Translations under genes and position numbers: made by a program
The notes under the pieces: generated by a model
Seen by the model: the letters and a program-made list of their open reading frames with translations, nothing else
What the model was told of the DNA's origin: nothing
Databases searched by the model: none
Part shown: positions 1 to 13,525 of the stretch, piece after piece
Layout of the letters: the number at the start of each line of letters is the position of its first letter
How positions within the stretch are numbered: position 1 is the first letter of the stretch
Assembly: GCA_035758565.1 (NCBI GenBank)
Contig: DASTXL010000001.1
Coordinates: 396,981 to 460,980, forward strand
Direction: 5' to 3'
Origin: Candidatus Saccharimonadales bacterium
Lineage (GTDB): Bacteria > Patescibacteriota > Saccharimonadia > Saccharimonadales > UBA10212
DNA: 64,000 bases

Positions 1-841
1 AACAATCACCTTCGCGAGTATTGATAATATTTCTAGCTTTTCTAAGGACGGCATCATCAAGAATTTTTTTAAGCTTCTCTGTTCTTTTTGATTTACCAAT
101 GCTATTAATGTGGTAAATGGCTTGCTCTATCTGCTCTGTGCGAATACATTCTTCTATGAATTCTAGATCGGGCTTCGCCTCGCTATCGCTCCTCAACTCC
201 CGCTGAGATTCATTGGCCCGGGCGCCAAGCGTATTCATGGCAGTATCCGCCTCTTTTTGGAGAGCCTCTATTCTCTCGCGGGCCAGCGCTCTGAAATGAT
301 CAAATGCCTCGTTTATAATGTCGGGCTGTATTAAGCCAGGCTCCAGCGCTCTTTCGGCAGCTTCTTGAAGACTCATAGATAGAATTTTGTCCAGTTCAGC
401 CATTACTTCCGGGGCAAAGTCTGCCACATCTAAACCGTCTTCTGCGAAGTCGCCGAGCTGCGCTCGCAATGCTTCCATTAACGGCTTACGATATGCAGCC
501 ACCAGCTCACACGGTGGCACTTGGTCCTCCAAGCTAGCTGGCGGCAAAGTTAACTGAACATCGGGAGAAGTCAGCTCACGAGTGGTGGCGTAGGCGAATT
601 GCATCCTGACGCTGTAGTGGCATTGCTTCAGGACTTTGGACATAGATCCCAGAAAAGCCAGTTCAAGGTTCAACTCATTAACAGGCTGGCCGCTATCTTC
701 TAGCATCTGCCTTCCCTCAAGAACTATCGCGTTAAGCTCTTCAGCCACAGCCTCCTGAAAAGTTTCTTGTCTTTCTGCGGCTAGATCTAGTTTTCGTGAT
801 CTTATTTCGTGGTCACTGTTGCCCAAAAAACTTTCGGTCAT
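1..841 (-). CDS. hypothetical protein, mostly helical (3' end truncated by the window edge; start ATG at 841..839)
   Basis: Open reading frame verified by manual translation across all of 1..841 (MTESFLGNSDHEIRSRKLDLAAERQETFQEA...). It lies 5 nt downstream of the lysS stop on the same strand. No recognisable family. Confidence 0.55.
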   Translation of the reverse strand, partial: MTESFLGNSDHEIRSRKLDLAAERQETFQEAVAEELNAIVLEGRQMLEDSGQPVNELNLELAFLGSMSKVLKQCHYSVRMQFAYATTRELTSPDVQLTLPPASLEDQVPPCELVAAYRKPLMEALRAQLGDFAEDGLDVADFAPEVMAELDKILSMSLQEAAERALEPGLIQPDIINEAFDHFRALARERIEALQKEADTAMNTLGARANESQRELRSDSEAKPDLEFIEECIRTEQIEQAIYHINSIGKSKRTEKLKKILDDAVLRKARNIINTREGDC

Positions 842-846
842 ATTGT

Positions 847-2355
847 CTACTCAAACTTTAAGTCTGGATAAATCCCGCGGGTGACGTCATCGACATCGTA
901 ACGCAGCTGCGGGAAAGGCACGCCTTCGCGAGCAGTGACTCCCTCTAGTAACCAAAAAACCCGCTCAGAATGACCCCAACCGCAAGTTGGCGGCATACCA
1001 TATTCCAGCATTTCTACGTAATCTATATCAAGCATCTGGGCTTCTTCGTCACCGGCGTCGCGCATAGCTTGCTGTTCGCGGAAGCGAGCCAGCTGGTCTA
1101 GTGGATCATTCAGCTCGCTATAACCGTTACCGAGTTCGGTACCGGCAATTACGGGCTGGAAACGCTCTACGGTTTCTGGACGCTCTGGATTCTTTTTGGC
1201 CAGCGGGCTGATAAATAGCGGCGTATTAATTAACCAAGTCGGACCTTCTAAGTCTTTTCTGATGTTCTTCCAGAGTTTGTCTATGCCCCGAGCTTTGTTG
1301 TCGGTCTTTTCGACCACTAACTTATTGTCGGCTAGGGCTTTTTTAACGTCTTCTAGGCTGCAGTTATAAGGATCAATGCCATATTTTGATTCAATAGCCT
1401 CGGCATAATCAAGCTTTTGCCACTGCTTATCGAGGTCCACTTTAAAATCGCCTATTTCAAACTGCATTTTGCCAAAGGTTTTAAGCGCAATGTATTTAAA
1501 CATGTCTTCCATAAATGCCATACCATCGCGCCAGTCGGCGTAAGCCCAGTACCATTCCATGGCTACGTGCTCAGGCAGATGCTCGTCGGTGTAATGTTCG
1601 TTGCGAAAGCGCGGACCGATATCATATACCTTTTCGTAACCGCCGCCAATTAGTTTTTTGAGCGGTAATTCATGACTAATGCGCAAGTAAAAATCCTGGT
1701 CTAAAACATCCATGTGGGTTTTAAAAGGTTTAGCATCAGCCCCGCCGGTTGTGTGCTCTAAAACTGGAATATTTACCTCAACAAAACCATGTTTATTCAG
1801 ATATTCGCGGTTAGCTTCCCAGAATTTGCTGCGCCGGATAAAACGCTCGTAGACTTCCTGGTTGGCATTAAGGTCGACGTAGCGGCGGCGAAAACGCTCT
1901 TCTTTATTAGTCAAACCGTCTCTGCCCGGCAGCGGCCGCAAGCTTTTAGCCAGCAATCTGAGCTCACTAACCTGAACTGATATCTCGCCAGTTTGAGTCT
2001 TGATAACAGGCCCAGTAGCCTGGATAAAATCTCCACTGTTTAATAGGCCGATTTCAGAAAAATTAAGCTGGCTTTTACTGTGGTCGGCTGCCGGCATATT
2101 TGTTTCCGTCAAGAACAACTGGAGCTGGCCGCTATGGTCTTTTAAAACAATGAAGGCAATCTTACCAAAGCTGCGAATACCAGTTACCCGGCCAACGACA
2201 CTGACTTCATTGCCGGATAACTCCTCGAATTTCGGAGTTATGTCGCCAAGTAAATGAGTCCTTTTAGCGTGGGCGGGGTATGGATCGATGCCGAGCTTCT
2301 TGATTTCTTCAAGTTTTTTCAGCCGCTCGTCGCGATAGTCTTTCAGAGTTGCCAT
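847..2355 (-). CDS. lysS: lysyl-tRNA synthetase, class II
   Basis: 502 aa with an N-terminal OB-fold anticodon-binding region plus class II core motifs; full-length similarity to bacterial LysRS. Confidence 0.9.
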   Translation of the reverse strand: MATLKDYRDERLKKLEEIKKLGIDPYPAHAKRTHLLGDITPKFEELSGNEVSVVGRVTGIRSFGKIAFIVLKDHSGQLQLFLTETNMPAADHSKSQLNFSEIGLLNSGDFIQATGPVIKTQTGEISVQVSELRLLAKSLRPLPGRDGLTNKEERFRRRYVDLNANQEVYERFIRRSKFWEANREYLNKHGFVEVNIPVLEHTTGGADAKPFKTHMDVLDQDFYLRISHELPLKKLIGGGYEKVYDIGPRFRNEHYTDEHLPEHVAMEWYWAYADWRDGMAFMEDMFKYIALKTFGKMQFEIGDFKVDLDKQWQKLDYAEAIESKYGIDPYNCSLEDVKKALADNKLVVEKTDNKARGIDKLWKNIRKDLEGPTWLINTPLFISPLAKKNPERPETVERFQPVIAGTELGNGYSELNDPLDQLARFREQQAMRDAGDEEAQMLDIDYVEMLEYGMPPTCGWGHSERVFWLLEGVTAREGVPFPQLRYDVDDVTRGIYPDLKFE

Positions 2356-2407
2356 ATAAATAGTAGTTTATATTCTTTGGTATCTATTATCAAAGAATAG
2401 CGTAAAG

Positions 2408-2854
2408 TTATGAGATGTCAGTAATCTTGTAGGAGACCGAATTTATTTCGATCTGGTCACCAACTTTTTTGCCCAGCAAAGCTTTGCCAATTGGAGCCTC
2501 GTCGGATAGTTTACCGTTCAAGGGATCGGCCTCCATGGTGCCCACAACTTGGAATTCCTTAGTGGTGCCGTCGTTTTTTAGCTTAACCACCGAACCCAAA
2601 CGTACCTGGCCGTCGCTTTTAGGTTTCTTGATAACCTGGGCGTTTTGCAAAATGTGGTCTAGCTCGGAAATGCGGGATTCTAAGCGATCTTGCTCTTCGC
2701 GGGCAGTTTGATACTCGGCGTTTTCGCTTAAGTCACCTAACTCACGAGCTTCTTTAATGCGGTCAGCAACAGCCACACGCTGAGACATTAAACCTTCAAG
2801 CTCACTTTTAAGCTCGTCTAGTCCGGATTGGGTCAGTTTAAACTGTTTTTTCAT
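2408..2854 (-). CDS. greA: transcription elongation factor GreA
   Basis: 148 aa with a coiled-coil N-terminus carrying acidic tip residues (DLSENAEY) and a C-terminal FKBP-like domain. Confidence 0.9.
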   Translation of the reverse strand: MKKQFKLTQSGLDELKSELEGLMSQRVAVADRIKEARELGDLSENAEYQTAREEQDRLESRISELDHILQNAQVIKKPKSDGQVRLGSVVKLKNDGTTKEFQVVGTMEADPLNGKLSDEAPIGKALLGKKVGDQIEINSVSYKITDIS

Positions 2855-2941
2855 GATTTACTAAAACCTTGTCTTAAAAAAATAACCCCAAGTTCCCCAC
2901 GAAAGAACTAAGAATGTCGCTTGATTATAGCAAGCCAAGAT

Positions 2942-4189
2942 TTATTTGCCTAGTACTTGGATTACAGAAGTTAAGCCGACAATTTGAGTCTCTTCTGAGC
3001 TGCGCGATTTAAGCTCAAAACCGCCGCTCTCAAGAGATTTAGCACTAACCACTAGGCGGAATGGCAGACCCAATAAATCGGCGTCAGCAAACTGCTCGCC
3101 AGGCCGCTCGCCTCGATCGTCGTAGAGCACCTCGATGCCAGCTGATTTAAGCTTTTCATAGGCTTCGTCGGCTGCTTTTAATATCGCGGGATCATCGCCC
3201 AATCGGCACAAATAAACATGATACGGGGCTACATTCACTGGCCATACCAACCCGCGCTCGTCGGCAAACTTTTCAGCTATAACACCCATAAGTCTAGTGA
3301 TCCCGATGCCATAAGACGCCAAGTAGACTGGCTTCTCTTGCCCTTCGGCGTCGCTAAAGTAAACGCCCATTTGCTGAGCCTTATCGGACCCAAAGTTAAA
3401 AATGTTACCTACTTCGGCGCTTTTGACCACTTCTAGTTCGTCTTTTGAAATGTTAAGTTCCTTGATAGCTTCATCTAGAACTTCTTCGTTTACAGCAATA
3501 TTTCGGCCACGATGCAAGTAAAGAACATCTTCGCCAGCATCACAAATGGTCTGGAACTCATGACTGAATTTAGTAAACGCGCCACCGCTCGCGAAAGTTA
3601 CGAATGTTTCCTTGCCAATGCCAAGCCGTTCGTAAACTTTTTTGTAGGCTTCGATAACTTTGTTGTAGTAATCATCCAGATCTTCGGCCGAAGTGTGCAG
3701 AGAGTACATGTCTTTCATGACGAATTCGCGGCCGCGCATTATGCCGCTTTTGGCCCTAAGTTCGTTACGCAGTTTTGTTTGGAATTGGTAAACGCTAGCT
3801 GGCAAGTCTTTATAACTCTGGATGAACTGCTGCATCATGGCCAGAATTGGTTCCTCATGACTCCAGGCCAAGCCCAACTCACTTCCATCCTGCAAATGAG
3901 TCTTAAACCAAACGTCTACGACCTTTTCGTCCCAACGGCCGGTTTTCTGCCAGATATCCGGTCGTTGCAGATTGGTCATTATCAGCTCTTGGCCGCCAAT
4001 AGCATTCATTTCTTCGCGAACAATTTGTTTGATGTTTTCCAGCACCTTAAAGCCGAGCGGCAAATAATCATAAACGCCGGCCATTTCTTTATGCACAAAA
4101 CCAGCGCGAATCAATAATTGTGCGTTAAGAGATTCTTCGTCAGCCGGTGTTTGCTTGCGAGTAGAAATAAATAGTTGGCTTCGTCTCAT
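2942..4189 (-). CDS. proS: prolyl-tRNA synthetase (short form lacking the editing insertion)
   Basis: 415 aa with class II aaRS core and C-terminal anticodon-binding domain; no INS editing domain. Confidence 0.85.
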   Translation of the reverse strand: MRRSQLFISTRKQTPADEESLNAQLLIRAGFVHKEMAGVYDYLPLGFKVLENIKQIVREEMNAIGGQELIMTNLQRPDIWQKTGRWDEKVVDVWFKTHLQDGSELGLAWSHEEPILAMMQQFIQSYKDLPASVYQFQTKLRNELRAKSGIMRGREFVMKDMYSLHTSAEDLDDYYNKVIEAYKKVYERLGIGKETFVTFASGGAFTKFSHEFQTICDAGEDVLYLHRGRNIAVNEEVLDEAIKELNISKDELEVVKSAEVGNIFNFGSDKAQQMGVYFSDAEGQEKPVYLASYGIGITRLMGVIAEKFADERGLVWPVNVAPYHVYLCRLGDDPAILKAADEAYEKLKSAGIEVLYDDRGERPGEQFADADLLGLPFRLVVSAKSLESGGFELKSRSSEETQIVGLTSVIQVLGK

Positions 4190-4219
4190 ATCTTGATTTA
4201 GTTTACCTAGAAAAGTCCG

Positions 4220-4984
4220 CTAGTGGAAGTGAACACCAAAAGCGACCAGATTGTTGAGCATGTGCACTAATATTCCAGCATAGAGCGCACCAGTCGATTC
4301 CCTAAGATAAACCAGCACCAACGAAAGAACAAAAGTATCGATGCCAGCGGCCCAAAGCAGTGGCGCACCACCACCAATTTCTAGATGGGCAATTCCAAAC
4401 AAAATGCTGGTAACAATTGCCGCCGGCCAAAACTTTAGCCTGGCTCTTAAGCCCGAAAATAAATAACCACGAACCAGCGGCTCTTCGCCAAGAGGCGGCA
4501 CAATCACCAGAGCTGCGAAAGCCAGCAGATTATCAGTGGTGGTAGTTATATTGTTAAAACCCAGATCCTGTTGCTGATTGGTGTTAACATTGGGCAAAAA
4601 TACACTGACTAGCAGGCTGGCAACTATAAGTAGTCCGTAAAATACGGTGAAGCCAATCAGGGCTTTGAATACGTCGTCCCAAATCGGCCGGCGGCCAAGT
4701 CCTATGAATCTTGGCGGCAAACGACGGTTTTTAAGACTCAATAAAACTAGGGCTACCGCCAGACCTTCGGCGAGTATGACATAAAAAAATTGCCCAGCCG
4801 ACGAATTATCAAGCAGGCCGGCCACATTGATATGGGGGTGCATAATCGACAAAATCAACTCAACTATAAAAGCAGCCAGAATTTGACTAAAGAAAAAAAT
4901 GACTAGCGTGTTGAAAATTAGCCAATACGGACCGCCCAGGTCTGCCCTGTCTCGGCCCTTAAAAAGATTTAGCTTTGTCTTCAT
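4220..4984 (-). CDS. CPBP-family (CAAX) intramembrane metalloprotease
   Basis: Multi-TM protein with the EExxxR motif (EEPLVRGY) and FxxxH motif (FGIAHL) typical of Abi/CPBP proteases. Confidence 0.75.
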   Translation of the reverse strand: MKTKLNLFKGRDRADLGGPYWLIFNTLVIFFFSQILAAFIVELILSIMHPHINVAGLLDNSSAGQFFYVILAEGLAVALVLLSLKNRRLPPRFIGLGRRPIWDDVFKALIGFTVFYGLLIVASLLVSVFLPNVNTNQQQDLGFNNITTTTDNLLAFAALVIVPPLGEEPLVRGYLFSGLRARLKFWPAAIVTSILFGIAHLEIGGGAPLLWAAGIDTFVLSLVLVYLRESTGALYAGILVHMLNNLVAFGVHFH

Positions 4985-4991
4985 GTTTCCT

Positions 4992-6170
4992 CTAGAAGAA
5001 TCGCCTGACGTCTACAATGGTTATTAAAACCATCAAAGCCAGCAATACAACCATGCCAGCGCCGACGATTTTTTCTTCAGTCTCCGGAGCGAGGGGTTTC
5101 TTAAAGATGCCGCGCGACACCAGCATCATAAAGAGCCGTCCGCCATCCAGAGCCGGTATCGGCAAGACATTCATGAGTGCCAAAGTCAAAGATATAAGTG
5201 CGATTAAAGCAATAACAAAATTAAAGCCCAGGCTGCCGCTGTTCCAAAGAACATCCATAATAGCCACCGGACCGCCAACTTGGCTCTCGGCTGCTGTTTG
5301 ACCATTAACCCTGGCCGCGTGATTGCCCGTAACCAATCCAGCAATCAACGATCCCAGCCCGCCGATTGCGTGGCCCAGGCCTTGAACGGTTAACCAGACA
5401 AGTTGACTGGCAAAACCGATTGCCGTAAGCGGAGCGCTCCAGGTTGAGCGCTGAATTGTAATCTGATTAGGCGACACTCCTAGATAACCCTTCTGGCCGT
5501 TGCTGGCCTCAACTTCTTTAGCGCCCAGAAGCTGCACGTCTTTGGTCTCTATTTTTCCGCTGTGCTTATAAGTCAGCGTCACTTTTTTGCCGGCAAATCG
5601 AGTAGTGGCGTCATGGAGTTGCGAAGTAGTATTGATGTTATCGTGCTGATTCTTGTAGCTAACCGAGGTAATAATATCTTGACTGGATAGTCCAATCTTT
5701 TGGGCCGGCGAGCCGTCGATTACAAGACCAGCTTCTACTTGCTGTTGAATAACGTGCGTATCGTTTTTAATAGTGAATTGATCTTGGCCGTTATAGTCTT
5801 TACTAATCAGGACCGGCATACCAACCCAGCCCAAAATTGTTAAGAGAACAAGTCCAATTAAGGCATTCATGGCTACGCCAGCCAATAAAATTTTGGTCTT
5901 TGAGCCGAGAGCGGCCGCGCCAAAACTACCCTTGGCGGTATCGTTATCGTGCTCGCCTTTAAGTTTCACAAAACCACCCAGCGGCAGCCAGTTAACGCTT
6001 AGTAGCAAGCCGCTTTTTAGACGGCGGCCGTAAGCTCTCGGCGGAAAACCTAAGCCGAACTCTTCGGCGTCAACGCCGTTTCGTCGAGCCACAATAAAAT
6101 GGCCCCATTCGTGACCTAAAATCAAGCCTATGAAAAGAATTACGGCCAACACAAACAGAGCTATTTGCAT
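4992..6170 (-). CDS. rseP: RIP site-2 metalloprotease RseP
   Basis: HExxH zinc motif (HEWGHF), PDZ-like middle region, and the LNVLPIPALDGG motif in the last TM region. Confidence 0.85.
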   Translation of the reverse strand: MQIALFVLAVILFIGLILGHEWGHFIVARRNGVDAEEFGLGFPPRAYGRRLKSGLLLSVNWLPLGGFVKLKGEHDNDTAKGSFGAAALGSKTKILLAGVAMNALIGLVLLTILGWVGMPVLISKDYNGQDQFTIKNDTHVIQQQVEAGLVIDGSPAQKIGLSSQDIITSVSYKNQHDNINTTSQLHDATTRFAGKKVTLTYKHSGKIETKDVQLLGAKEVEASNGQKGYLGVSPNQITIQRSTWSAPLTAIGFASQLVWLTVQGLGHAIGGLGSLIAGLVTGNHAARVNGQTAAESQVGGPVAIMDVLWNSGSLGFNFVIALIALISLTLALMNVLPIPALDGGRLFMMLVSRGIFKKPLAPETEEKIVGAGMVVLLALMVLITIVDVRRFF

Positions 6171-6211
6171 AAGCTAAATTGTATCACGCTAACCTGATAA
6201 TAATCTGTTAG

Positions 6212-6895
6212 CTAAGCTCCATATCGGCGCTGGCGATTGGCGAACTCGTCTAGTGCGAAGTCAATGTCTTCGGGAGTAAAGTCGGGCCAGTGCTTATCTA
6301 GAAATAGCAGTTCAGAATAGGCTGCCCTATAGAGCATGAAGCCACTTAGTCGCTGTTCGCCAGAGGTTCGGATAATCAGATCCAGTGGTGGCACTTCCGG
6401 CTTGTATAAGTAGCTTTCAAAGGTTTCTAAGTCTAGTGAATCTGCATTAATTTTTTGTTCAATTATCGCCTTGGCCGCATCTACTATTTCCTGCTGCCCG
6501 CCATAATTGAAGCATAAAGCCAGAGTCCCGCCGGTATTGCCAGCTGTTTTACTCTCGGCCTGCTCAATGGCTTTGAGAACCGGCTTTGATAGTTTATCGC
6601 GGCTGCCAAGAATTAAAATCTTGATATTATCGCGGTGAAAATCGTCTAAGTATTCTGTAATTGCCCGCGTAACCAAACGCATCAAAAAGCCTACTTCTTC
6701 TTCGGTACGCTTCCAGTTCTCGGTAGAGAAAACAAAGGCGCTAAGATACGGGATTTTCTTTTCTAGAAACGTGTAGCGTGAAAGTTCATAAAAGTTCTTG
6801 TAACCGGCCAGGTGGCCGTCCATTGGTTTTTTGCCCTGGGCGCGCGCCCAGCGACGATTGCCGTCCATAATGACGCCTATATGCTGTGGTTTCAC
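6212..6895 (-). CDS. uppS: undecaprenyl-diphosphate synthase (isoprenyl transferase)
   Basis: MDGNRRWA motif and cis-prenyltransferase fold signature. Apparent GTG start lies immediately after the stop of the upstream gene. Confidence 0.9.
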   Translation of the reverse strand: MKPQHIGVIMDGNRRWARAQGKKPMDGHLAGYKNFYELSRYTFLEKKIPYLSAFVFSTENWKRTEEEVGFLMRLVTRAITEYLDDFHRDNIKILILGSRDKLSKPVLKAIEQAESKTAGNTGGTLALCFNYGGQQEIVDAAKAIIEQKINADSLDLETFESYLYKPEVPPLDLIIRTSGEQRLSGFMLYRAAYSELLFLDKHWPDFTPEDIDFALDEFANRQRRYGA

Positions 6896-7948
6896 CTATT
6901 TATTCCTGCTCGTAACATAATCTATTAAATCTGATAAAAAATCTTTGGCGGCCTGATCAAAACTACTGGAAGTGATAGCTTTTTTAGTCTTAGTAGAAAA
7001 CTCTTGGGCTTTGGCCTCTACGGCAGAACGAGCGCCGCAATTTTCGACAATTGCCTGTACTTCTTCAAATTCTGATTGACTTAAGTGCTGGTTCCCCAAC
7101 GCCTTGCGCACTAAACCTGCGTTTTGATGGCCTGCACGCTCCAAAGTATACAGCATTAAGAGCGTAAATTTACCTTCTTTTAGATCGTCTTGAGCCGATT
7201 TACCCGTTTCTGTTGGATTGCCAAACAGGCCTAAAAGATCATCTTGCAACTGAAAAGCCACACCGGCCGGCCGGCCAATCGATTCTATTTCCTTCATAAA
7301 GTCTGGCTCGGCTTTGCCGGCTAAAATAGCGCCGAGCTGCAATGGGCTAATGAAGCTGTAGTAGCTGACTTTCATCTCTAGTAAATGGATAATTTGTGCC
7401 TCGGTAGCTTGAACTTTTAGGTCATTATTCAAATCATCCATTTGCCCGTAAACCGTAGCTAAGATATTCCTATGCAGGACCTGCGATGCCTGGCTTAAAC
7501 GAGCCGGCTCGGCCTCAATTAAGCTCAAGATGTACGAAGCTAGATGCTCGCCCAGCAAACCAACATTAATAGCCATCATGCTGGCCAAATACTCACTGCT
7601 TTTACCTAGTTCGGCAGCCAACAGTCTATGGACCGTTGGCTTGCCTCGACGCTCTGGCGAACGATCCATAACATCGTCAATAATGCATAGATAACTTTGA
7701 ACCAGTTCTTGGGCAATGGCGGCGTTAATAATAGAGTCCGAAGACTCACCGGCTAAGCTTTCGTACGCAAAAAGAGTCAGAGCACCGCGCAGCCTCTTGC
7801 CTGGCCGCAAAGTGAACTCTTTTAAGTACCCTAGAAGTTTAAGTTCGTAGTCATTAAGCTCCAGACCGCCCGCCGAAAGATCCGATTCAAAAAAATCAGC
7901 CAAGGCATTGTCGATCCGCTGGCGATAACTTTCGAGCTGGGACTGCAT
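6896..7948 (-). CDS. trans-polyprenyl diphosphate synthase (IspA/GGPPS-like)
   Basis: Two aspartate-rich motifs (DDVMD and DDLLG) of the trans-isoprenyl diphosphate synthase family. Confidence 0.8.
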   Translation of the reverse strand: MQSQLESYRQRIDNALADFFESDLSAGGLELNDYELKLLGYLKEFTLRPGKRLRGALTLFAYESLAGESSDSIINAAIAQELVQSYLCIIDDVMDRSPERRGKPTVHRLLAAELGKSSEYLASMMAINVGLLGEHLASYILSLIEAEPARLSQASQVLHRNILATVYGQMDDLNNDLKVQATEAQIIHLLEMKVSYYSFISPLQLGAILAGKAEPDFMKEIESIGRPAGVAFQLQDDLLGLFGNPTETGKSAQDDLKEGKFTLLMLYTLERAGHQNAGLVRKALGNQHLSQSEFEEVQAIVENCGARSAVEAKAQEFSTKTKKAITSSSFDQAAKDFLSDLIDYVTSRNK

Positions 7949-7957
7949 GCTAACCCG

Positions 7958-8536
7958 CTAAACGGTCATTATCTCTTGTTCTTTGGCTTTGGCTAGAGCT
8001 TCAACTTCAGCTTTTTGTTTAGCAAGCAGTTCATCTACTTGTTTTTCAAAACGAGCAAGATCGTCTTTGCTAATATCTTTATCTTTTTCGGCTTGCTCGG
8101 CGCGTCGGAGTGCCTCGTGGCGGATATTGCGGGCACTGATCATAGTTTCTTCAACTTTCTGGCCCAGGACTTTGACCATTTGCTGTCTGGTTTCGGTAGT
8201 TAATGGCGGAATCTGGATACGCACGACACGGCCGTCATCTGCCGGATTTAGACCCAGGGACTGGTTGTTGCGGATGGCGTCGCTAATAGCCTGCAGATTG
8301 TTTGGGTCAAAAGGTGTTATTTGTAACAACTGGGCCTCAGGCGCCGTAATAGTAGCCGTGGCTTTCAATGGCATCTGCTGGCCGTAAACCTCAACCATGA
8401 CATTATCAAGCATACCCGGATGGGCCCGGCCAGTGCGGATTTTGGCTATCTCTTGCTTGAAGTGCTCAGCCGCGGCGTTAAGTTTTGTACGGGCGTCATC
8501 AAGAGTTTGGTTTGGATTCATAAAAGAATTATACAA
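7958..8536 (-). CDS. frr: ribosome recycling factor (probable true start is ATG at 8521; the track start at 8536 is TTG)
   Basis: Full-length RRF similarity (KIRTGRAHPGMLD...). A TATAAT box sits 6 nt upstream of the ATG at 8521, suggesting a leaderless mRNA. Confidence 0.9.
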   Translation of the reverse strand: MYNSFMNPNQTLDDARTKLNAAAEHFKQEIAKIRTGRAHPGMLDNVMVEVYGQQMPLKATATITAPEAQLLQITPFDPNNLQAISDAIRNNQSLGLNPADDGRVVRIQIPPLTTETRQQMVKVLGQKVEETMISARNIRHEALRRAEQAEKDKDISKDDLARFEKQVDELLAKQKAEVEALAKAKEQEIMTV

Positions 8537-8547
8537 CGCCCCGCCCC

Positions 8548-8576
8548 TGTTTAAAAATGAATAAATATTTTATAAT
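8548..8576 (+). promoter_or_regulatory. candidate sigma70 promoter: TGTTTA, 17-nt spacer, TATAAT
   Basis: Hexamers and 17-nt spacing read directly. Sits in the AT-rich stretch just upstream of the first high-GC islet gene. Confidence 0.4.
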
Positions 8577-8666
8577 TTAAGACCTAGTCAGTGGAAATCT
8601 CCCGTCCAAACTTATCTATAATGCGTGCGGGCCTGCTGGCTTGCACATCAAGAAACGGAGGATTGA

Positions 8667-9041
8667 GTGCTTCTTCGCACCTACCTGCTGCAAGCGTCAG
8701 CGGTGCTGCTGAGCTTCGGTTTGCTGGGGCTCGGCTTGCTCGAAGACTGGTGGCTGATCGCAGACATGCTGCTAGTCCTGGCGATCGCAATGACCGCCGC
8801 TGCGGTGCTCGTGGGCAACGACCACGAGATGCGCGTGATCGCGCTCCTCTTTTCCATCGTCTTTTTCGAGGCGTGGCAAGGGGCGCGCTGGCACTACAAC
8901 GGCTGGCAGCTCGCGGCTGTCGTGCTGTTCGCCGGCATCATCCCGCCCATGACCCTCGTCAACATCGCGGTCTGGCCGGAGATCTGGCGGGAGCGCAAAG
9001 CCCGCCGGTTTCCAGAGACCACCAGCCTGAATCTCGTGTAA
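8667..9041 (+). CDS. small integral membrane protein (about 4 TM), in a high-GC islet
   Basis: GTG start preceded by GGAGG; hydrophobic helices. About 65% GC against a roughly 47% GC host background. Confidence 0.55.
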   Translation: MLLRTYLLQASAVLLSFGLLGLGLLEDWWLIADMLLVLAIAMTAAAVLVGNDHEMRVIALLFSIVFFEAWQGARWHYNGWQLAAVVLFAGIIPPMTLVNIAVWPEIWRERKARRFPETTSLNLV

Positions 9042-9067
9042 ACGTCCCAACACCCAAAGGATCGGAT

Positions 9068-9841
9068 ATGCTACTGTACGCGTTCTTGGGCGGTCTTGCC
9101 GTCCTGGCCGTCGCCGCAGGCGTCGGCTTGCAGAAGTACTACATCGGCGGTGTCCGCCGGGCCGTCGGCTGGATCGTCAGCCACAGCCTGCCGGTCTTCG
9201 TCAAGCTCGGCATCACCCCGAATCGCATGACCTCCGCAGGCGTCAGCCTGTGCGTGGCCGCCTCTGGGCTGGTGCTGCTCGCCCACTACGACCGCGTGTT
9301 CTACTGGGTGGCAGCGGCCGTGTTCTTCGTCGGCGCCATGCTCGACGTGTTCGACGGCACGCTGGCCCGGGCTACCGGAGCGAGCACGCTATTCGGTGGC
9401 TTCGCCGACTCGGTGACCGACCGCCTGGGCGAAGGCATGATGCTCTCGTGCATCGGCCTGCTGTTCATGTGGCAACACCACCGGTTCGCCGCCTTCATCA
9501 TCGGCCCGACGATCCTGGGCTCCTGCTTGGTCAGCTACGCGCGGGCCAAGGCGGAGCAGCTGGACATCGAGTGCCGCGACGGCATCGGCGGCCGCGCCGA
9601 GCGCTGCTTCCTGATCATCGCTGGCCTCGTTCTGGCTCCGAAAGGCGCACTGCCGTGGGCGATCTACGTCCTGGCGGGTATCGCCTGGCTCACGGTCGGG
9701 CATCGAATGCTGGTGGTTCGCCAGAAGCTCGAGGGCCGCGCCACGTTGCTGAAAGCAGGTGAGCGCTTCGTCGGCCTGCTGGCCGGCATCCTCACCCTGT
9801 CGATCGTGATGATGTACTTCGGCATCGACTCGCCGTGGTGA
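9068..9841 (+). CDS. CDP-alcohol phosphatidyltransferase family protein, in a high-GC islet
   Basis: Perfect signature D-G-x2-A-R-x8-G-x3-D-x3-D (DVFDGTLARATGASTLFGGFADSVTDR) in a multi-TM protein. ATG at 9068 preceded by AAAGGA. The track ORF 8591..9841 is an upstream in-frame over-extension. Confidence 0.85.
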   Translation: MLLYAFLGGLAVLAVAAGVGLQKYYIGGVRRAVGWIVSHSLPVFVKLGITPNRMTSAGVSLCVAASGLVLLAHYDRVFYWVAAAVFFVGAMLDVFDGTLARATGASTLFGGFADSVTDRLGEGMMLSCIGLLFMWQHHRFAAFIIGPTILGSCLVSYARAKAEQLDIECRDGIGGRAERCFLIIAGLVLAPKGALPWAIYVLAGIAWLTVGHRMLVVRQKLEGRATLLKAGERFVGLLAGILTLSIVMMYFGIDSPW

Positions 9842-9873
9842 GCGCGCCAGAGCGTGCCAATCCTCCACCCTAT

Positions 9874-9903
9874 AGGCGGGATCCAAAACTCAATGGATCC
9901 CGC
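9874..9903 (+). terminator. perfect 10-bp inverted repeat hairpin (GGCGGGATCC, 10-nt loop, GGATCCCGCC)
   Basis: Lies immediately after the phosphatidyltransferase stop; there is no strong U-tract. Confidence 0.4.
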
Positions 9904-9977
9904 CTCGCGGCATGGGCTAATTAAGTAGCATTCGCTCGCCCGTGCCGCCTCAACTCCTTATAATCTCATGCAGAGTA

Positions 9978-10006
9978 TTGACTTTTATGTAGTTTTATGC
10001 TAATAT
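9978..10006 (+). promoter_or_regulatory. candidate sigma70 promoter: TTGACT, 17-nt spacer, TAATAT
   Basis: Consensus-like hexamers with 17-nt spacer in an AT-rich spacer inside the high-GC islet, upstream of the third islet gene. Confidence 0.45.
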
Positions 10007-10098
10007 ATCCCTAACCATCAAGCTTATGCTTTGTTGGAGTCCCTCAAGGTATTACTTCCTTGTCAATTGCAGTAGCGAGAGAAAGGAATCAGCTGGCC

Positions 10099-10590
10099 AT
10101 GCTGGCTACCTTCATTTCGTTCCACCCGTTCTGGTTCGGGGTCGCGAACGCGCTGATCATCATCGGACTCACCGTCCTGACGGTTATCGTCGCCGCCATC
10201 GCGTTCTTCTCGGTGGGATCGAAGAACGGCCCCACACCGTTCGTGCTGTTCGCGCTGTTCTTCGCCGCCATCACGGTCTTCCTCCCGTACTTCCGAACGA
10301 AGACTCGCGAGCACACCCATCTTGCCAGCCGGCAGATGACCGCCGCCTACGGCGGCAAGGTGCTCAAGGTGCACGTCAACGACCACAACGCGATCATGCA
10401 GCTTCCGGGCTGCAAGACGCCGTTCGTCCACGAGATGCGGCAGTTCAAGAACTACCACTACCGTGGCGGCGTGGTGAACGGCTACCGCTATGCGGCCGAC
10501 TACCAGATCACCACCAAGAACGGTGACGCTGTCACCGAGCACCATCCGCTGAGCAAGCAGCTGGTGCTTCAGCTCTGCAAGACGGCGTAA
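10099..10590 (+). CDS. membrane-anchored hypothetical protein (2 N-terminal TM plus a soluble C-terminal domain), in a high-GC islet
   Basis: ATG at 10099 preceded by GAGAAAGGA; the track start at 10060 is TTG. No recognisable family. Confidence 0.55.
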   Translation: MLATFISFHPFWFGVANALIIIGLTVLTVIVAAIAFFSVGSKNGPTPFVLFALFFAAITVFLPYFRTKTREHTHLASRQMTAAYGGKVLKVHVNDHNAIMQLPGCKTPFVHEMRQFKNYHYRGGVVNGYRYAADYQITTKNGDAVTEHHPLSKQLVLQLCKTA

Positions 10591-10607
10591 GGAAGAACCA
10601 AAGAGGC

Positions 10608-10681
10608 GCCGGTGAGCGTGCTCGCGAGGCAACTCGCGCCGCTCACCGGCAAGCGGCTTTCAGTCGAAGGCCGCTTTTTTA
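10608..10681. terminator. two consecutive hairpins; the second (AGCGGC, loop, GCCGCT, then TTTTTT) is a classic intrinsic terminator
   Basis: GCCGGTGAGCG...CGCTCACCGGC is followed by AAGCGGCTTTTCAGTCGAAGGCCGCTTTTTT. They sit between convergent genes (islet gene 3 and tsf) and probably act bidirectionally. Confidence 0.55.
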
Positions 10682-10732
10682 GTACCAAATCAAAATAGGC
10701 CCCCATTAAGGACTTATTTTGTTCAGAAACTT

Positions 10733-11335
10733 TTATTCGTTGACTTCGCCAAGTTGCATGCGAGCAAAGCGCCGAACAACAATGTTCTCGCCCAGCTTGG
10801 CAATGCCCTCTTTAACATAATCGCCAACTGTCTGGTCGGGGTTTTTGATAAAGGGTTGTTCCAGCAAGCAGCGCTCAGCAAAATGTTTCTTAAGCATACC
10901 TTCTACGATTTGCCCTACCATATTCTCTGGCTTGCCCTCACCCTTAACTTTCTCCGTAAACTCGGCTTCGACGGCAGCCTTAACATCGGCTGGGACATCA
11001 TCAACACTAACGAATTCCGGTGCACTAGCGGCAATATGCATAGCCACGTCTTTTACCAAATTGGTGAAGTTTTCGTTACGGGCTACAAAATCAGTCTCGC
11101 AGTTAACCTCCAAGAGGACGCCTATGCGGTTATCGTGGCTGTAGGTGCCGATAACTCCGGCACGGGCTTCACGCTCACCTCGTTTTTCGGCCTTGGTTAA
11201 GCCCTTTTTGCGCATGGCTGCCAAAGCTTTGTCGAAATCGCCATTGGATTCGACCAAAGCCTGCTTGGCGTCGGTAATGCCGACCCCTGTCAGTTCGCGT
11301 AAACGCTTGATCTCATCAATGCTGATGTCAGCCAT
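10733..11335 (-). CDS. tsf: elongation factor Ts
   Basis: 200 aa with UBA-like N-terminus and EF-Ts core similarity. Confidence 0.9.
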   Translation of the reverse strand: MADISIDEIKRLRELTGVGITDAKQALVESNGDFDKALAAMRKKGLTKAEKRGEREARAGVIGTYSHDNRIGVLLEVNCETDFVARNENFTNLVKDVAMHIAASAPEFVSVDDVPADVKAAVEAEFTEKVKGEGKPENMVGQIVEGMLKKHFAERCLLEQPFIKNPDQTVGDYVKEGIAKLGENIVVRRFARMQLGEVNE

Positions 11336-12087
11336 TATTCTTTGCCCTCCTCTTTTGATTCAACTTTTTGCTCGGTTTTGTCGGTAGGATTCTTAGCCTT
11401 ATTTTTGCCTGATTCAATAGCGGTCTGGACGTAGTCTAGGATCAGGTTGATGGTCTTAGTAGCGTCGTCGTTGCATGGAATCGGATAGTCAATAAGCGTT
11501 GGGTCGGCATTAGTATCAACCAAGGCGACAACTGGAACGTGCAGTTTACGGGCTTCACGAACAGCATTGATATCGTTTATTACGTCCACCACAAAAACAG
11601 CACCCGGTTTGGCTGCCAATTCCTTGATGCCACCGTACAAACGGTTCATTTCGTCTATTTCTTCAGCGAAGCGCTGGACTTCCAGCTTGTTGTAGCGGCT
11701 TTCCAGCTCGCCGCTAATCATGCGGCTCTCTAGGTCTTTGAGCTGCTTGATGCGAGCGCCGATGGTGGCTTGGTTGGTTAACATGCCACCGAGCCAGCGC
11801 TCAGTCACGAACGGCATACCGGTTGCAGCGGCAACTTCGCGAATCTTATCTTTGGCCTGACGCTTAGTGCTAACCAACAAAACTTGCTTGCCGGCGGCTG
11901 AAGTGTCGGTCAAAAAAGCCAGAGCTTTGTCTAGAGCCTCTACGGTTTTAGTTAAGTCAATGATATGGTTGCCCTCTCGCTTAGAGTGAATGTAGGGCGC
12001 CATTTTTGGATGCCAACGGCTGGTCTGGTGGCCAAAGTGCGCGCCAGCCTCGAGCAATTTTTTAATATCTACGTCTGTCGTAGCCAT
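11335..12087 (-). CDS. rpsB: 30S ribosomal protein S2
   Basis: Full-length S2 similarity; its stop overlaps the tsf start by 1 nt. Confidence 0.92.
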   Translation of the reverse strand: MATTDVDIKKLLEAGAHFGHQTSRWHPKMAPYIHSKREGNHIIDLTKTVEALDKALAFLTDTSAAGKQVLLVSTKRQAKDKIREVAAATGMPFVTERWLGGMLTNQATIGARIKQLKDLESRMISGELESRYNKLEVQRFAEEIDEMNRLYGGIKELAAKPGAVFVVDVINDINAVREARKLHVPVVALVDTNADPTLIDYPIPCNDDATKTINLILDYVQTAIESGKNKAKNPTDKTEQKVESKEEGKE

Positions 12088-12237
12088 TTACTTCGAAATC
12101 CTTTCTCACCGTAAGGTCGCTTGCCATCACGGTCCTATCAAGGTGCCGGTCAGGAGGATTATTTGCAACCCACTGTTTAATTAATACTTAGGTTATTCTA
12201 CCTCTGTTACCTTTTTTTTGCAACACCTTAAATTCCC

Positions 12238-12266
12238 TTGAAAGATATATATAATTATGGTAAAAT
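12238..12266 (+). promoter_or_regulatory. candidate sigma70 promoter: TTGAAA, 17-nt spacer, TAAAAT
   Basis: Hexamers read directly; located upstream of the second high-GC islet gene pair. Confidence 0.4.
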
Positions 12267-12341
12267 ATTGCAGTCACTTAACAGAGGTGGCGCTGGCCTG
12301 GCAGCACCAAACCACGGCAGAACCTTGCGAAAGGAAGACGC

Positions 12342-12692
12342 ATGACTTCCTCGCCCATTCAGGTAAGCATCTACCACCACCTCGCCGCAGAAGATCAGAC
12401 GGCCGTAGCAGACGAGCTGATTCGTCTCTTCAGCTACAAGCCTCCGATCGGTCTCGGTCGGCCCGAAGGCGACGAGTTCAGCATCAACTTCGTCGAGCGG
12501 GAACATCCCCTGAACACCACCATCCGGGTGGTTCTGCCGGCGGAGATCTTCAACCAGCTCGTGCCTGGCAAGAAGCCCGACGAGGTCCTGCGCCATTCGC
12601 TGAACGTCCGCTTCCACCGCGACGACTTCTACGTCATCGTCACAGGGGTCAACCTGGACGAAGAGGAGGAAGAAGCAGAGGAGTGGGAATGA
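12342..12692 (+). CDS. small acidic hypothetical protein (paralog A), high-GC islet 2
   Basis: ATG preceded by GAAAGGAAG. The C-terminus is a poly-Glu tail. Its stop overlaps the next start in an ATGA arrangement. Weak beta-alpha-beta pattern reminiscent of tautomerase-like small proteins, but the Pro is not at position 2. Confidence 0.5.
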   Translation: MTSSPIQVSIYHHLAAEDQTAVADELIRLFSYKPPIGLGRPEGDEFSINFVEREHPLNTTIRVVLPAEIFNQLVPGKKPDEVLRHSLNVRFHRDDFYVIVTGVNLDEEEEEAEEWE

Positions 12693-13006
12693 GCCTCGAA
12701 CCAATCGAAGTCCAGCACTCCGAAGACCTGGACCCCAACGAGCAGGCGGCGATCGAAAGCGCGGTGCGAGAACTGTTCGCCGAACAGTTTGGCGATCAGC
12801 TCGGCATCGAGCCGGATGACGTAGAGGTCAGGTTCAGCCTCGCCAATATTGGGCCGAAGCAGCTCAGGATCTACGCGATTCTGCCCGCCAACCTCGACCT
12901 CGGCATTGGCGAAGTGATGTACGGCGAGAGCCTCAATACCATCTACATGGAGCTAGTCAAACGATTCCCTGGCCGGGTGGTCATCATGAGCGCCGAGAGC
13001 GGCTAG
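12689..13006 (+). CDS. small acidic hypothetical protein (paralog B), high-GC islet 2
   Basis: ATGA overlap with the upstream gene. Alignable to paralog A (I-x-V, EDQ/NEQ-AA, LPA motifs). The track ORF 12257..13006 is a different-frame read-through artefact. Confidence 0.5.
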   Translation: MSLEPIEVQHSEDLDPNEQAAIESAVRELFAEQFGDQLGIEPDDVEVRFSLANIGPKQLRIYAILPANLDLGIGEVMYGESLNTIYMELVKRFPGRVVIMSAESG

Positions 13007-13018
13007 TTCGCAAGGAGG

Positions 13019-13055
13019 AGCAGAAGAAACATCGAACTTTGGGGGTTTCTTCTGC
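13019..13055 (+). terminator. perfect 11-bp inverted repeat hairpin (GCAGAAGAAAC, loop, GTTTCTTCTGC)
   Basis: Lies directly after the stop of paralog B. Confidence 0.45.
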
Positions 13056-13129
13056 TCCGCAGCGCTAAGGGCGCGCCTATTTAGATTTTATATAGAGCGG
13101 CGCCCGGCGCCTCAAACCCATATATTATG

Positions 13130-13158
13130 TTGACCGACAGAGGTGAATAAGATATACT
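13130..13158 (+). promoter_or_regulatory. candidate sigma70 promoter: TTGACC, 17-nt spacer, TATACT, 10 nt upstream of the rpmE ATG (leaderless or near-leaderless)
   Basis: Hexamers read directly. There is no Shine-Dalgarno sequence between the -10 box and the ATG at 13169. Confidence 0.45.
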
Positions 13159-13168
13159 AACTTAGCTT

Positions 13169-13525
13169 ATGAAAAAGAGTTTACACCCAACTGACTATCG
13201 ACCGGTTGTCTTTCAAGACTTGAACGACAACTCTACTATTGTTGTCCGCTCTACCGCTCCGGCCGAAGAAACTATTACATTAGAAGGCGTTGAATATCCG
13301 CTTATCAAGATTCATATTTCTAGCTCTAGCCATCCTTTCTTTACCGGCGAAGAGCGCATCGTCGACGTAGAAGGCCGGGTTGATAAATTCAAGGCTCGCC
13401 AGGCTGCCGCTGCCAAGGCCCGCGAAGCCCGCGCTGCTGCCAAACCAAAAACCACCAAAAAGGCCAAATCCGAAGCCCAGAAGCTAGGCGCTACCCAAAC
13501 TACCAAACCAGCCGCCCAAGAATAA
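13169..13525 (+). CDS. rpmE: 50S ribosomal protein L31, type B (no zinc motif), with a Lys/Ala-rich C-terminal extension
   Basis: N-terminal L31 similarity ([17 protein letters not shown]...) without a CxxC motif, followed by a KA-rich tail. Confidence 0.85.

Follow-up and report, generated by a model that had tools for sequence, protein, structure and literature searches.

The subject of this report is a GC-rich islet carried by a 64,000-nucleotide stretch of DNA (hereafter the window) from a Candidatus Saccharimonadales bacterium (GenBank assembly GCA_035758565.1, contig DASTXL010000001.1, positions 396,981 to 460,980). The islet lies between two minus-strand genes, frr and tsf, and contains three plus-strand genes, the central one of which encodes a CDP-alcohol phosphatidyltransferase that resembles the phosphatidylinositol phosphate (PIP) synthases (PIPS) of Actinobacteria. 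The features of the locus are given below, where GC3 is the G+C fraction at third codon positions and aa stands for amino acids; the true start of frr is likely the ATG at 8521.

7958–8536, minus strand: frr, ribosome recycling factor (PF01765, 183 bits), GC3 0.47, host flank
8537–8666, plus strand: divergent promoter and leader region, AT-rich, GC 0.43
8584–10700: GC-rich islet, three genes, all on the plus strand, GC 0.613
8667–9041, plus strand: orfA, 124 aa, GTG start, GC3 0.85, about four hydrophobic helices by inspection
9068–9841, plus strand: CDP-alcohol phosphatidyltransferase, putatively of the PIP-synthase/AIPS type, 257 aa, PF01066, GC3 0.89
9875–9904, plus strand: 10-bp inverted repeat (ggcgggatcc/ggatcccgcc) 3' of the transferase gene, lacking a T-tract, kept in the related locus L001
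9949–10732, plus strand: orfC module, with promoter (9978–10006), orfC (10099–10590) and terminator (10651–10676) followed by a T-run
10733–11335, minus strand: tsf, elongation factor Ts (PF00889), GC3 0.54, host flank

The DNA of the islet is compositionally foreign. The flanks have GC contents of 0.469 (1–8536), 0.487 (10733–12250) and 0.491 (13101–64000), and 300-bp windows inside the islet peak at 0.69, against a maximum of 0.612 among background 500-bp windows, reached within a giant gene. In the true reading frames, GC3 is 0.85 in orfA and 0.89 in both the transferase gene and orfC, compared with 0.482 ± 0.035 (maximum 0.554) in 36 host genes of the window. By tetranucleotide profile the islet is 0.040 away from the background, against 0.020 ± 0.0023 (maximum 0.028) for 2.1-kb background chunks, or twice the background mean and about nine standard deviations out, and codon usage correlates with that of two donor-like loci from soil bacteria of 67–70% GC (r = 0.95) far better than with that of the host genes (r = 0.42). 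The spacers are host-like in GC (0.43 for 8537–8666; 0.49 for 9842–10098). The initial annotation had described a high-GC islet within flanks of 45–50% GC, placed on the strand opposite to its neighbours and with short AT-rich spacers, and had called for GC, GC3 and tetranucleotide profiles of 8584–10700; all of this is borne out by the measurements, except that the GC-rich block, which it treated as a single islet, was found to be not one unit but two modules.

Both junctions between the islet and its flanks were recovered in independent assemblies. The Logan data for SRR25158471 include a contig of 12,983 bp that agrees with the window at 100% over both junctions, in SRR12170513 a transferase gene of 98% identity adjoins tsf-rpsB on one contig, and analogous junctions are present in SRR12170513, SRR28521204, SRR28624400, two JGI metagenomes, an ENA forest-soil assembly and an NCBI metagenome-assembled genome (MAG). 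The RpsB protein of the window matches exclusively Saccharibacteria/Saccharimonadales MAGs, at 62–85% identity. A chimera of assembly or binning, in which actinobacterial DNA had been joined to a Saccharibacterial contig, has on its side the sharp GC jump alone, in soils where high-GC organisms dominate (PMC6031116); it was ruled out because both junctions were assembled independently in SRR25158471 and have analogues in other samples, and the probability that we would still assign to it is minute. A sharp GC jump in a MAG is thus by itself evidence of neither chimerism nor recent transfer.

Features of a mobile element were searched for at the same boundaries. No tRNA was detected within the window, no flanking or boundary repeats at the islet, and no integrase-like open reading frame (ORF) in the frr-tsf gap, where all ORFs are accounted for and the transferase alone has a Pfam match; mobility of the integron or island type was rejected on these grounds. 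PADLOC returned nothing, PHROG gave only a weak match of the transferase to an unannotated family, tblastn of orfC and of both proteins of a second islet (described below) yielded no phage matches, a blastn search with the entire islet gave no match to plasmids, and neither the transferase alignment nor orfC matched viral contigs, so that an origin from a phage, plasmid or defence system was likewise rejected. Classical genomic islands, for which an amelioration model was reportedly put forward by Lawrence and Ochman, resemble the islet in that their composition changes sharply at the boundaries, their codon usage is foreign, their content is accessory and their occurrence varies among relatives. 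Unlike them, the islet is devoid of an integrase, tRNA and direct repeats, its position, promoter and leader have been kept over deep lineages, and its composition has not ameliorated as the model predicts.

The transferase matches Pfam PF01066 at 63.5 bits (cut-off 22, E 4e-17), and the signature D93-x2-D96-G97-x2-A100-R101-x8-G110-x3-D114-x3-D118 is complete in transmembrane (TM) helices TM2/TM3, in agreement with the textbook motif that had been recognized in the initial annotation. Across 39 aligned homologs R101 is nearly invariant and the other signature residues are invariant. In Mycobacterium tuberculosis PgsA1 the phosphate of inositol phosphate is held by R94, S132, R152, R155 and R195 (PMC6506517). 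The counterparts of these residues, R119, S156, R176, R179 and R213, are all kept in the window enzyme and are invariant in the 39 homologs apart from S156, which is nearly so; relative to PgsA1, K135 is replaced by R159 and R137 by K161. Among PDB entries the closest in sequence were PgsA1 of M. tuberculosis and the PIPS of M. kansasii and Renibacterium. With the 39 homologs as input, AlphaFold gave a model (pLDDT 83.8) that presents a core of six TM helices, extended by a hydrophobic helix at the N-terminus and a further helix at the C-terminus (residues 225–252). In Foldseek searches with this model the top matches were 5d92, 6wmv and 6h5a; the PIP synthases of Renibacterium, M. kansasii and M. 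tuberculosis occupied ranks 1–13 and were followed by DIPPS and AF2299 and then by PgsA (E 1.6e-2).

The comparison with the solved actinobacterial PIP synthases, namely M. tuberculosis PgsA1 (6H53/6H59), Renibacterium salmoninarum PIPS (5D91/5D92) and M. kansasii PIPS (6WM5), therefore comprises both likenesses and differences. The Pfam family, the signature motif, the phosphate-binding residues and the six-helix fold with its juxtamembrane helix are common to all (TM-score to the target 0.72–0.79 for PgsA1). Unlike these enzymes, with which it shares 22–25% identity, the window protein falls under the NCBIfam PIPS cut-off and has the added hydrophobic N- and C-terminal helices, and its gene is not linked to pimA, an acyltransferase or Ino1 and sits in a reduced genome of about 49% GC.

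Because family, motif, binding residues, fold and the genomic neighbours of the nearest outside homologs all agree, we predict with good confidence that the protein is a PIP-synthase-type enzyme, which would most likely transfer the phosphatidyl group of CDP-diacylglycerol to inositol-1-phosphate and thereby form phosphatidylinositol phosphate. Two sets of results weigh against this assignment. The best NCBIfam model, AIPS (NF040950), scores 119 bits against a cut-off of 180, and PIPS (NF045883) scores 98 against 170, so that the equivalog level is reached by neither; and no inositol-1-phosphate synthase, PIP phosphatase or cdsA was found among the scanned genes of the 64-kb window. The Bacteroides-type PIPS model is also below its cut-off (88 bits against 350). 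These shortfalls would fit an enzyme that works on a different acceptor or donor, such as glycerol-3-phosphate, some other phosphorylated polyol or, as in archaeal AIPS, an isoprenoid-based CDP-lipid, and that alternative could also draw on the higher score of AIPS than of PIPS, the adjoining genes for a polyprenyl synthase and uppS, the two additional helices, and nonsynonymous divergence (dN) 5–8 times that of the flanks. AIPS (KEGG K17884) shares with the PIP synthases the acceptor inositol-1-phosphate and differs in its donor, CDP-archaeol; the window enzyme falls below its cut-off. Another substrate is nevertheless unlikely, given that the catalytic motif and all five phosphate-binding residues are retained, that PIP synthases precede DIPPS and PgsA among the structural neighbours, that the nearest homologs are operon-linked to inositol-1-phosphate synthase, and that the PgsA and PssA models reach just 27.9–28.8 bits (cut-offs 109–304) and 25.9 bits (cut-off 107), respectively. 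The initial annotation had proposed a phosphatidylinositol or phosphatidylglycerophosphate synthase; motif, binding residues and fold speak for the former, and the low PgsA scores speak against the latter. Its statement that cdsA is missing between uppS (6212–6895) and rseP (4992–6170) is correct, and none occurs among the scanned unassigned genes of the window.

The two genes that accompany the transferase encode small membrane proteins with predicted TM helices, as had been noted at the outset. orfA had zero matches in Pfam, NCBIfam, PHROG and PADLOC, and an exhaustive search of 1.84 billion representatives returned, apart from a spurious match to a repeat protein, a sole relative (P0252, 39% identical), which is encoded between frr and tsf of another Saccharibacterium (L101); orfA is a near-ORFan. 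The 163-aa orfC product consists of two confidently predicted TM helices and a beta-rich domain of low confidence (single-sequence model, pLDDT 62, soluble domain below 50), and the homolog search returned only orfC itself, annotated at NCBI as the hypothetical protein VFT49_02325. On the opposite strand, a 189-aa ORF (10063–10632, minus strand) is chosen over orfC by the gene caller of Logan; its GC1 is 0.85 and its GC3 0.56, compared with a GC3 of 0.89 for orfC. GC pattern, TM helices and NCBI annotation concur in favouring the plus-strand orfC as the real frame.

Upstream of orfA, a perfect −10 element (TATAAT) is located at 8571–8576 and a GGAGG ribosome-binding site at 8657–8661, and between them lies a 9-bp leader hairpin (8625–8646; GTGCGGGCC-TGCT-GGCTTGCAC), which was found by pattern and then folded. 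The promoter proposed in the initial annotation, TGTTTA/17/TATAAT, is sound in its −10 half, but the −35 half agrees with the consensus at only two of six positions and the promoter scan made no call there. The same scan placed the frr promoter on the minus strand at 8555–8528 and did call the second proposed promoter, TTGACT-17-TAATAT with an extended TG (9978–10006), upstream of orfC. Of the hairpin terminators that had been reported, only the one behind orfC is canonical; the inverted repeat at 9875–9904 has no T-tract and received no call as an intrinsic terminator.

The spacer between frr and the first gene of the gap can be aligned in six lineages (the window, L101, L083, L008, L084 and L086), the L001 contig having been left out of the alignment since it lacks the promoter/leader junction. 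The shared elements are a promoter of the form TTGAxAA...TATAAT, a GTCAATGTGAG box and, some 20 nt ahead of the ribosome-binding site, a GC-rich hairpin of 9 bp. The unit lies at 8571–8661 in the window, about 330–375 in L101, 2606–2634 in L083, 2500–2472 in L008, 694–721 in L084, and 207–233 and 992–1019 in L086, where one copy precedes each of two genes. When the hairpin was aligned by hand, nine pairs were obtained, 49 of the 53 cells were paired and two positions showed compensatory changes; an automatic alignment gave five pairs with one compensatory change. The covariation support is suggestive at most. In L084, L086 and L101, a CCUUC/CCUCC stretch directly after the hairpin could pair with the ribosome-binding site. 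Rfam, run in E-value mode over 8000–13500, reported no credible RNA element in the spacers, and no leader of the same type was found ahead of orfC or the second islet.

The content of the tsf-frr gap was surveyed in 72 Saccharibacterial loci with both genes (L003–L082). The gap is shorter than 200 bp in 27 and at least 1 kb in 25 of them, and it holds otherwise unrelated genes such as RecF, a HAD hydrolase (one locus) and many unknown proteins. In oral Nanosynbacter-like genomes recF is located there, alone or with two further genes, and the gap of one low-GC Saccharibacterium (L012) includes a GC-rich patch at 12051–12700 (0.50, the median of the locus being 0.39). According to the initial annotation, the islet occupies the place where pyrH normally sits. 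A Pfam scan of ten representative gap genes from the sampled Saccharibacteria found RecF, the HAD hydrolase or unknowns and no UMP kinase, and displacement of pyrH was rejected.

GC-rich membrane-protein genes at the frr site were found in seven lineages, the window and six others. In L008, the nearest GTDB species (90% identity in Tsf and 84% in Frr), the gap holds, on the opposite strand, a gene for a 231-aa transferase with a GC3 of 0.93, followed by two 2-TM peptides. A search with this transferase revealed three more alleles, 57%, 52% and 46% identical (L083, L084 and L086), whose genes lie directly beside frr and divergent from it; the GC-rich transferase gene is thus flanked by frr, and by tsf where the contig extends that far, in L001, L008, L083, L084 and L086. 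In L101 (Logan SRR28624400, 1–1157; Frr 81% identical) a 144-aa homolog of orfA with a GC3 of 0.90 and possibly a small TM peptide are found between frr and tsf, and the transferase gene is absent. The gap content varies in that the small genes s1/s2 alternate with orfA. The hydrophobic N-terminal helix is present in all Saccharibacterial transferase alleles (Kyte-Doolittle 2.2–3.1) and in 0 of 243 other homologs (maximum 1.1), and the Saccharibacterial alleles read RAERC where others read RAERV. Divergence of the flanks at 4-fold degenerate sites is 0.5 for the close pair of window and L001 and 1.0 to more than 2.5 between the others. Within the L008 group, the divergence of the transferase parallels that of Frr. 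The initial annotation regarded the islet as a recent insertion; the recurrence of the same arrangement with high GC in L001, L008, L083, L084, L086 and L101 contradicts this and is the very outcome that the annotation had named as a refutation.

The comparison of the window with L001 exposed a mosaic. Identity is 98% over 8985–9948, 75–89% over 10743 to about 11840 (tsf and the 3' two-thirds of rpsB) and 95–100% over the remainder to 12280, with window positions 9949–12280 corresponding to L001 965–2743 and the orfC indel at one of the breaks. This identity pattern is direct evidence that the locus has undergone homologous recombination with DNA of a divergent lineage. Since the 0.8-kb orfC module is absent from L001, where about 240 bp of unrelated AT-rich DNA take its place at the mosaic break, it is a separate unit of insertion or deletion, tied to the recombination tract. 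An earlier argument, that the islet must be mobile as it is more conserved than its flanks (98% against 87%, window versus L001), was withdrawn in view of the mosaic, because the divergent tsf/rpsB patch with the orfC indel may equally well be the recombinant piece.

Outside the Saccharibacteria, the nearest homologs of the window transferase are 48–54% identical, and the only named ones belong to the Gaiellaceae. They are found in PAP2-PIPS-inositol-1-phosphate-synthase operons of soil-bacterial DNA with 67–70% GC (L087, L088), which match the islet in GC3 (0.84–0.92) and codon usage. The islet differs from these operons in having neither the phosphatase nor the synthase, and their proteins differ from the islet alleles in lacking the hydrophobic N-terminal helix and in reading RAERV rather than RAERC. 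Among 5.8 billion proteins, none from outside the Saccharibacteria exceeded 54–57% identity, the best values being 54% for the window allele and at most 46% for the L008-type allele, and two scans of JGI metagenomes for further alleles gave only the known L084 contig and distant (33–38%), non-syntenic homologs. The initial annotation had asked whether the best matches would be actinobacterial; the nearest outside relatives are high-GC soil bacteria of actinobacterial type that possess genuine inositol-lipid operons.

The initial annotation explained the islet by a recent, one-off capture from an actinobacterial host. Saccharibacteria are epibionts of Actinobacteria (PMC6031116), and the unameliorated GC3, the sharp boundaries, the codon usage of 67–70% GC soil bacteria and the Gaiellaceae as the only named relatives would all suit such an event. 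Against it stand the best outside identity of 54%, the recurrence of the locus in six further lineages whose flanks have diverged, and spacers that are host-like, the one with promoter and leader being homologous across six lineages; the putative donors also have neither the N- nor the C-terminal helix. We consider this capture very improbable and largely refuted.

The islet is a genuine part of the chromosome of a soil Saccharimonadales, and we favour, as the probable though by no means certain explanation, that it is one instance of a clade-specific accessory locus. The locus would be ancestral to the subclade, because the same arrangement, a homologous promoter and leader and a shared N-terminal helix are found across diverged lineages. 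The ancestor of the subclade may have gained a PIP-synthase gene from a high-GC, inositol-lipid-making actinobacterial (Thermoleophilia/Gaiellales-like) bacterium, and the gene would then have settled between frr and tsf, divergent from frr and behind an AT-rich sigma70-type promoter and a hairpin leader. The simplest reading would be one ancient gain of a locus composed of an orfA-type gene, the transferase gene, s1 and s2, followed by differential loss. In the window, orfA and the transferase gene would have been fused into one operon and the transferase would have come to bear its extra C-terminal helix. Later, small membrane-protein genes (orfA-type, s1, s2, orfC) were presumably lost and gained differentially, neighbouring DNA was exchanged by homologous recombination and the proteins evolved very fast.

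Rapid protein evolution is indicated by a transferase dN of 0.33–0.76, compared with 0.05–0.24 in the flanks. In a neighbour-joining tree both types of Saccharibacterial allele form long branches that join the outside clade at its base. Several observations weigh against a single ancestral locus: the bootstrap for joint monophyly of the Saccharibacterial alleles is 35%; the window allele shares only 37% identity with the L008 group, against 84–85% for Frr, and it is nearer to the outside homologs (48–54%), in conflict with the Frr tree; L084, with Frr at 70%, has an allele 50–52% identical to those of L008 and L083; the covariation in the leader is weak in the automatic alignment; and the composition has not decayed as expected. 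As to the last point, islet GC3 across the lineages is 0.80–0.94 in genomes of 43–69% GC3. With the 4-fold divergence of the flanks as a clock, a starting GC3 of 1.0 and decay toward the host composition, the maxima expected under neutral amelioration are about 0.81 (L008/L083), 0.72 (window) and 0.61 (L084), and the observed values are 0.94, 0.89 and 0.81, respectively. At conserved 4-fold sites the alleles differ between lineages at 33–71% of positions, yet A+T still amounts to 6–26%. Between the 98%-identical alleles of the window and L001, 7–8 of 10 third-position differences involve A or T.

These misfits would be expected if the frr-tsf gap, behind a resident promoter and leader, had been reloaded repeatedly with GC-rich cargo by recombination, from unsampled high-GC donors or from other Saccharibacteria, so that the window allele and perhaps others are xenologous. 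The excess of GC3 over the neutral maximum, the donor-like codon usage (r = 0.95) and the Frr-incongruent affinity of the window allele to outside homologs would follow from such replacement, and so would the transferase divergence at 4-fold sites, which is below that of the flanks in every pair. The variable gap content (L101 without the transferase, the orfC indel, s1/s2 in place of orfA), the recombination tract bordering the islet and the variability of the tsf-frr gap throughout the phylum point in the same direction. Donors should outnumber their epibionts, but no donor above 57% identity was found in the 5.8 billion proteins and both metagenome scans recovered Saccharibacterial contigs only; the N-terminal helix and RAERC occur in all alleles and nowhere else; orfA and orfC are GC-rich and yet near-ORFans; and the gap is free of an integrase, att-like repeat or tRNA. 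We regard recurrent acquisition as a minority possibility and retain the ancestral, clade-specific locus as the preferred explanation.

The persistence of G/C at the synonymous sites is anomalous. Selection on mRNA structure was considered and rejected as a cause, as both strands of the transferase gene fold just 2–3 standard deviations better than 20 dinucleotide shuffles, which makes the test non-discriminating. Two readings of the anomaly present themselves, namely the repeated re-import of cargo from unsampled high-GC donors and a locus-specific force such as selection or GC-biased gene conversion. A more far-reaching proposal, which we think doubtful, is that the frr-tsf gap serves as a long-lived expression platform, made up of the conserved promoter and the hairpin leader, and that over long evolutionary time the membrane-protein genes it carries are actively held to the codon usage of high-GC hosts, either through continual re-seeding from host DNA that the competent epibionts take up or through a force favouring G/C at the locus (biased gene conversion, synonymous-site selection); the cargo would then comprise an enzyme for host-mimicking inositol lipids and fast-evolving membrane proteins for host interaction. 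The locus constitutes a clean natural test case, with orthologous, syntenic genes whose synonymous sites have turned over and are still G/C, which amelioration theory does not predict; biased gene conversion or GC selection in bacteria with reduced genomes could therefore be probed with it.

Saccharibacteria are thought to live on the lipids of actinobacterial hosts, inositol lipids are hallmark lipids of Actinobacteria, and to our knowledge Saccharibacteria cannot make fatty acids. A cell of this kind would use the enzyme to re-head scavenged lipids into host-like inositol lipids, and it is plausible that, as suggested in the initial annotation, the gene endows a lipid-scavenging cell with head-group chemistry of its own. 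If it is true, one soil subclade re-heads scavenged lipids in this way, with a bearing on membrane mimicry, attachment and host range. The interest of the locus derives mainly from these implied host-like lipids in an epibiont and from the persistence of its high GC3.

Inositol-lipid head-group chemistry in soil Saccharibacteria is in itself not new, because the soil Saccharibacterium 'Ca. Teamsevenus rhizospherense' was predicted to turn scavenged phosphatidate via cdsA and CDP-diacylglycerol into phosphatidylinositol and phosphatidylinositol mannosides, inositol lipids that resemble those of actinobacterial hosts (Starr et al., 2018; PMC6031116). The entries compared here are genes 1165–1167 and 1336–1337 of the supplementary gene table, which include a cluster of a cdsA-like gene (186 aa), a COG0613 PHP phosphatase and a K17884 transferase (PMC6031116), and the description mentions neither a compositional anomaly nor a conserved frr-tsf islet (PMC6031116). 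Like the window organism, 'Ca. T. rhizospherense' is a soil bacterium of about 50% GC; its transferase has 210 aa and is encoded in the cluster at about 1.076 Mb, far from frr, whereas that of the window is at frr. In 'Ca. T. rhizospherense' the next gene follows frr directly, with no islet; its product has 200 aa and is labelled a questionable ATP synthase subunit. By size and position, this gene could presumably be tsf. New at the present locus are a transferase lineage that is distinct and bears two additional helices, the conservation of its place between frr and tsf together with a common promoter and leader, and the fast protein evolution and non-ameliorating composition.

Three further features of the window lie outside the islet. 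A second islet, related to the first in composition, is found between rpsB and rpmE:

12342–13006, plus strand: islet 2, two overlapping small acidic ORFs, with a promoter at 12238–12266

Its ORFs (12342–12692, 116 aa, GC3 0.78; 12689–13006, 105 aa, GC3 0.79) overlap by ATGA and are preceded by the promoter TTGAAA-17-TAAAAT; islet 2 is missing from every one of the 80 related loci, and searches for protein families and phages gave no match to it. On the other side of frr, a polyprenyl diphosphate synthase gene (PF00348; 6896–7948, minus strand) is inserted between frr and uppS; the closest NCBIfam resemblance of its product, below the cut-off, is to an encapsulin-cargo-type polyprenyl transferase, and the insert is shared by a minority of related loci (L003, L006, L007, L026, L069, L071 and L073). 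Finally, a run of giant genes occupies 21828–49420 on the minus strand and encodes proteins of 2096 aa (DUF5050/LDL-receptor repeats), 1524 aa (a phage tail collar domain lies close to its C-terminal end) and 4696 aa; next comes a protein of 689 aa with triple laminin-G/concanavalin-like domains; the giant-gene products are probably cell-surface or attachment proteins.

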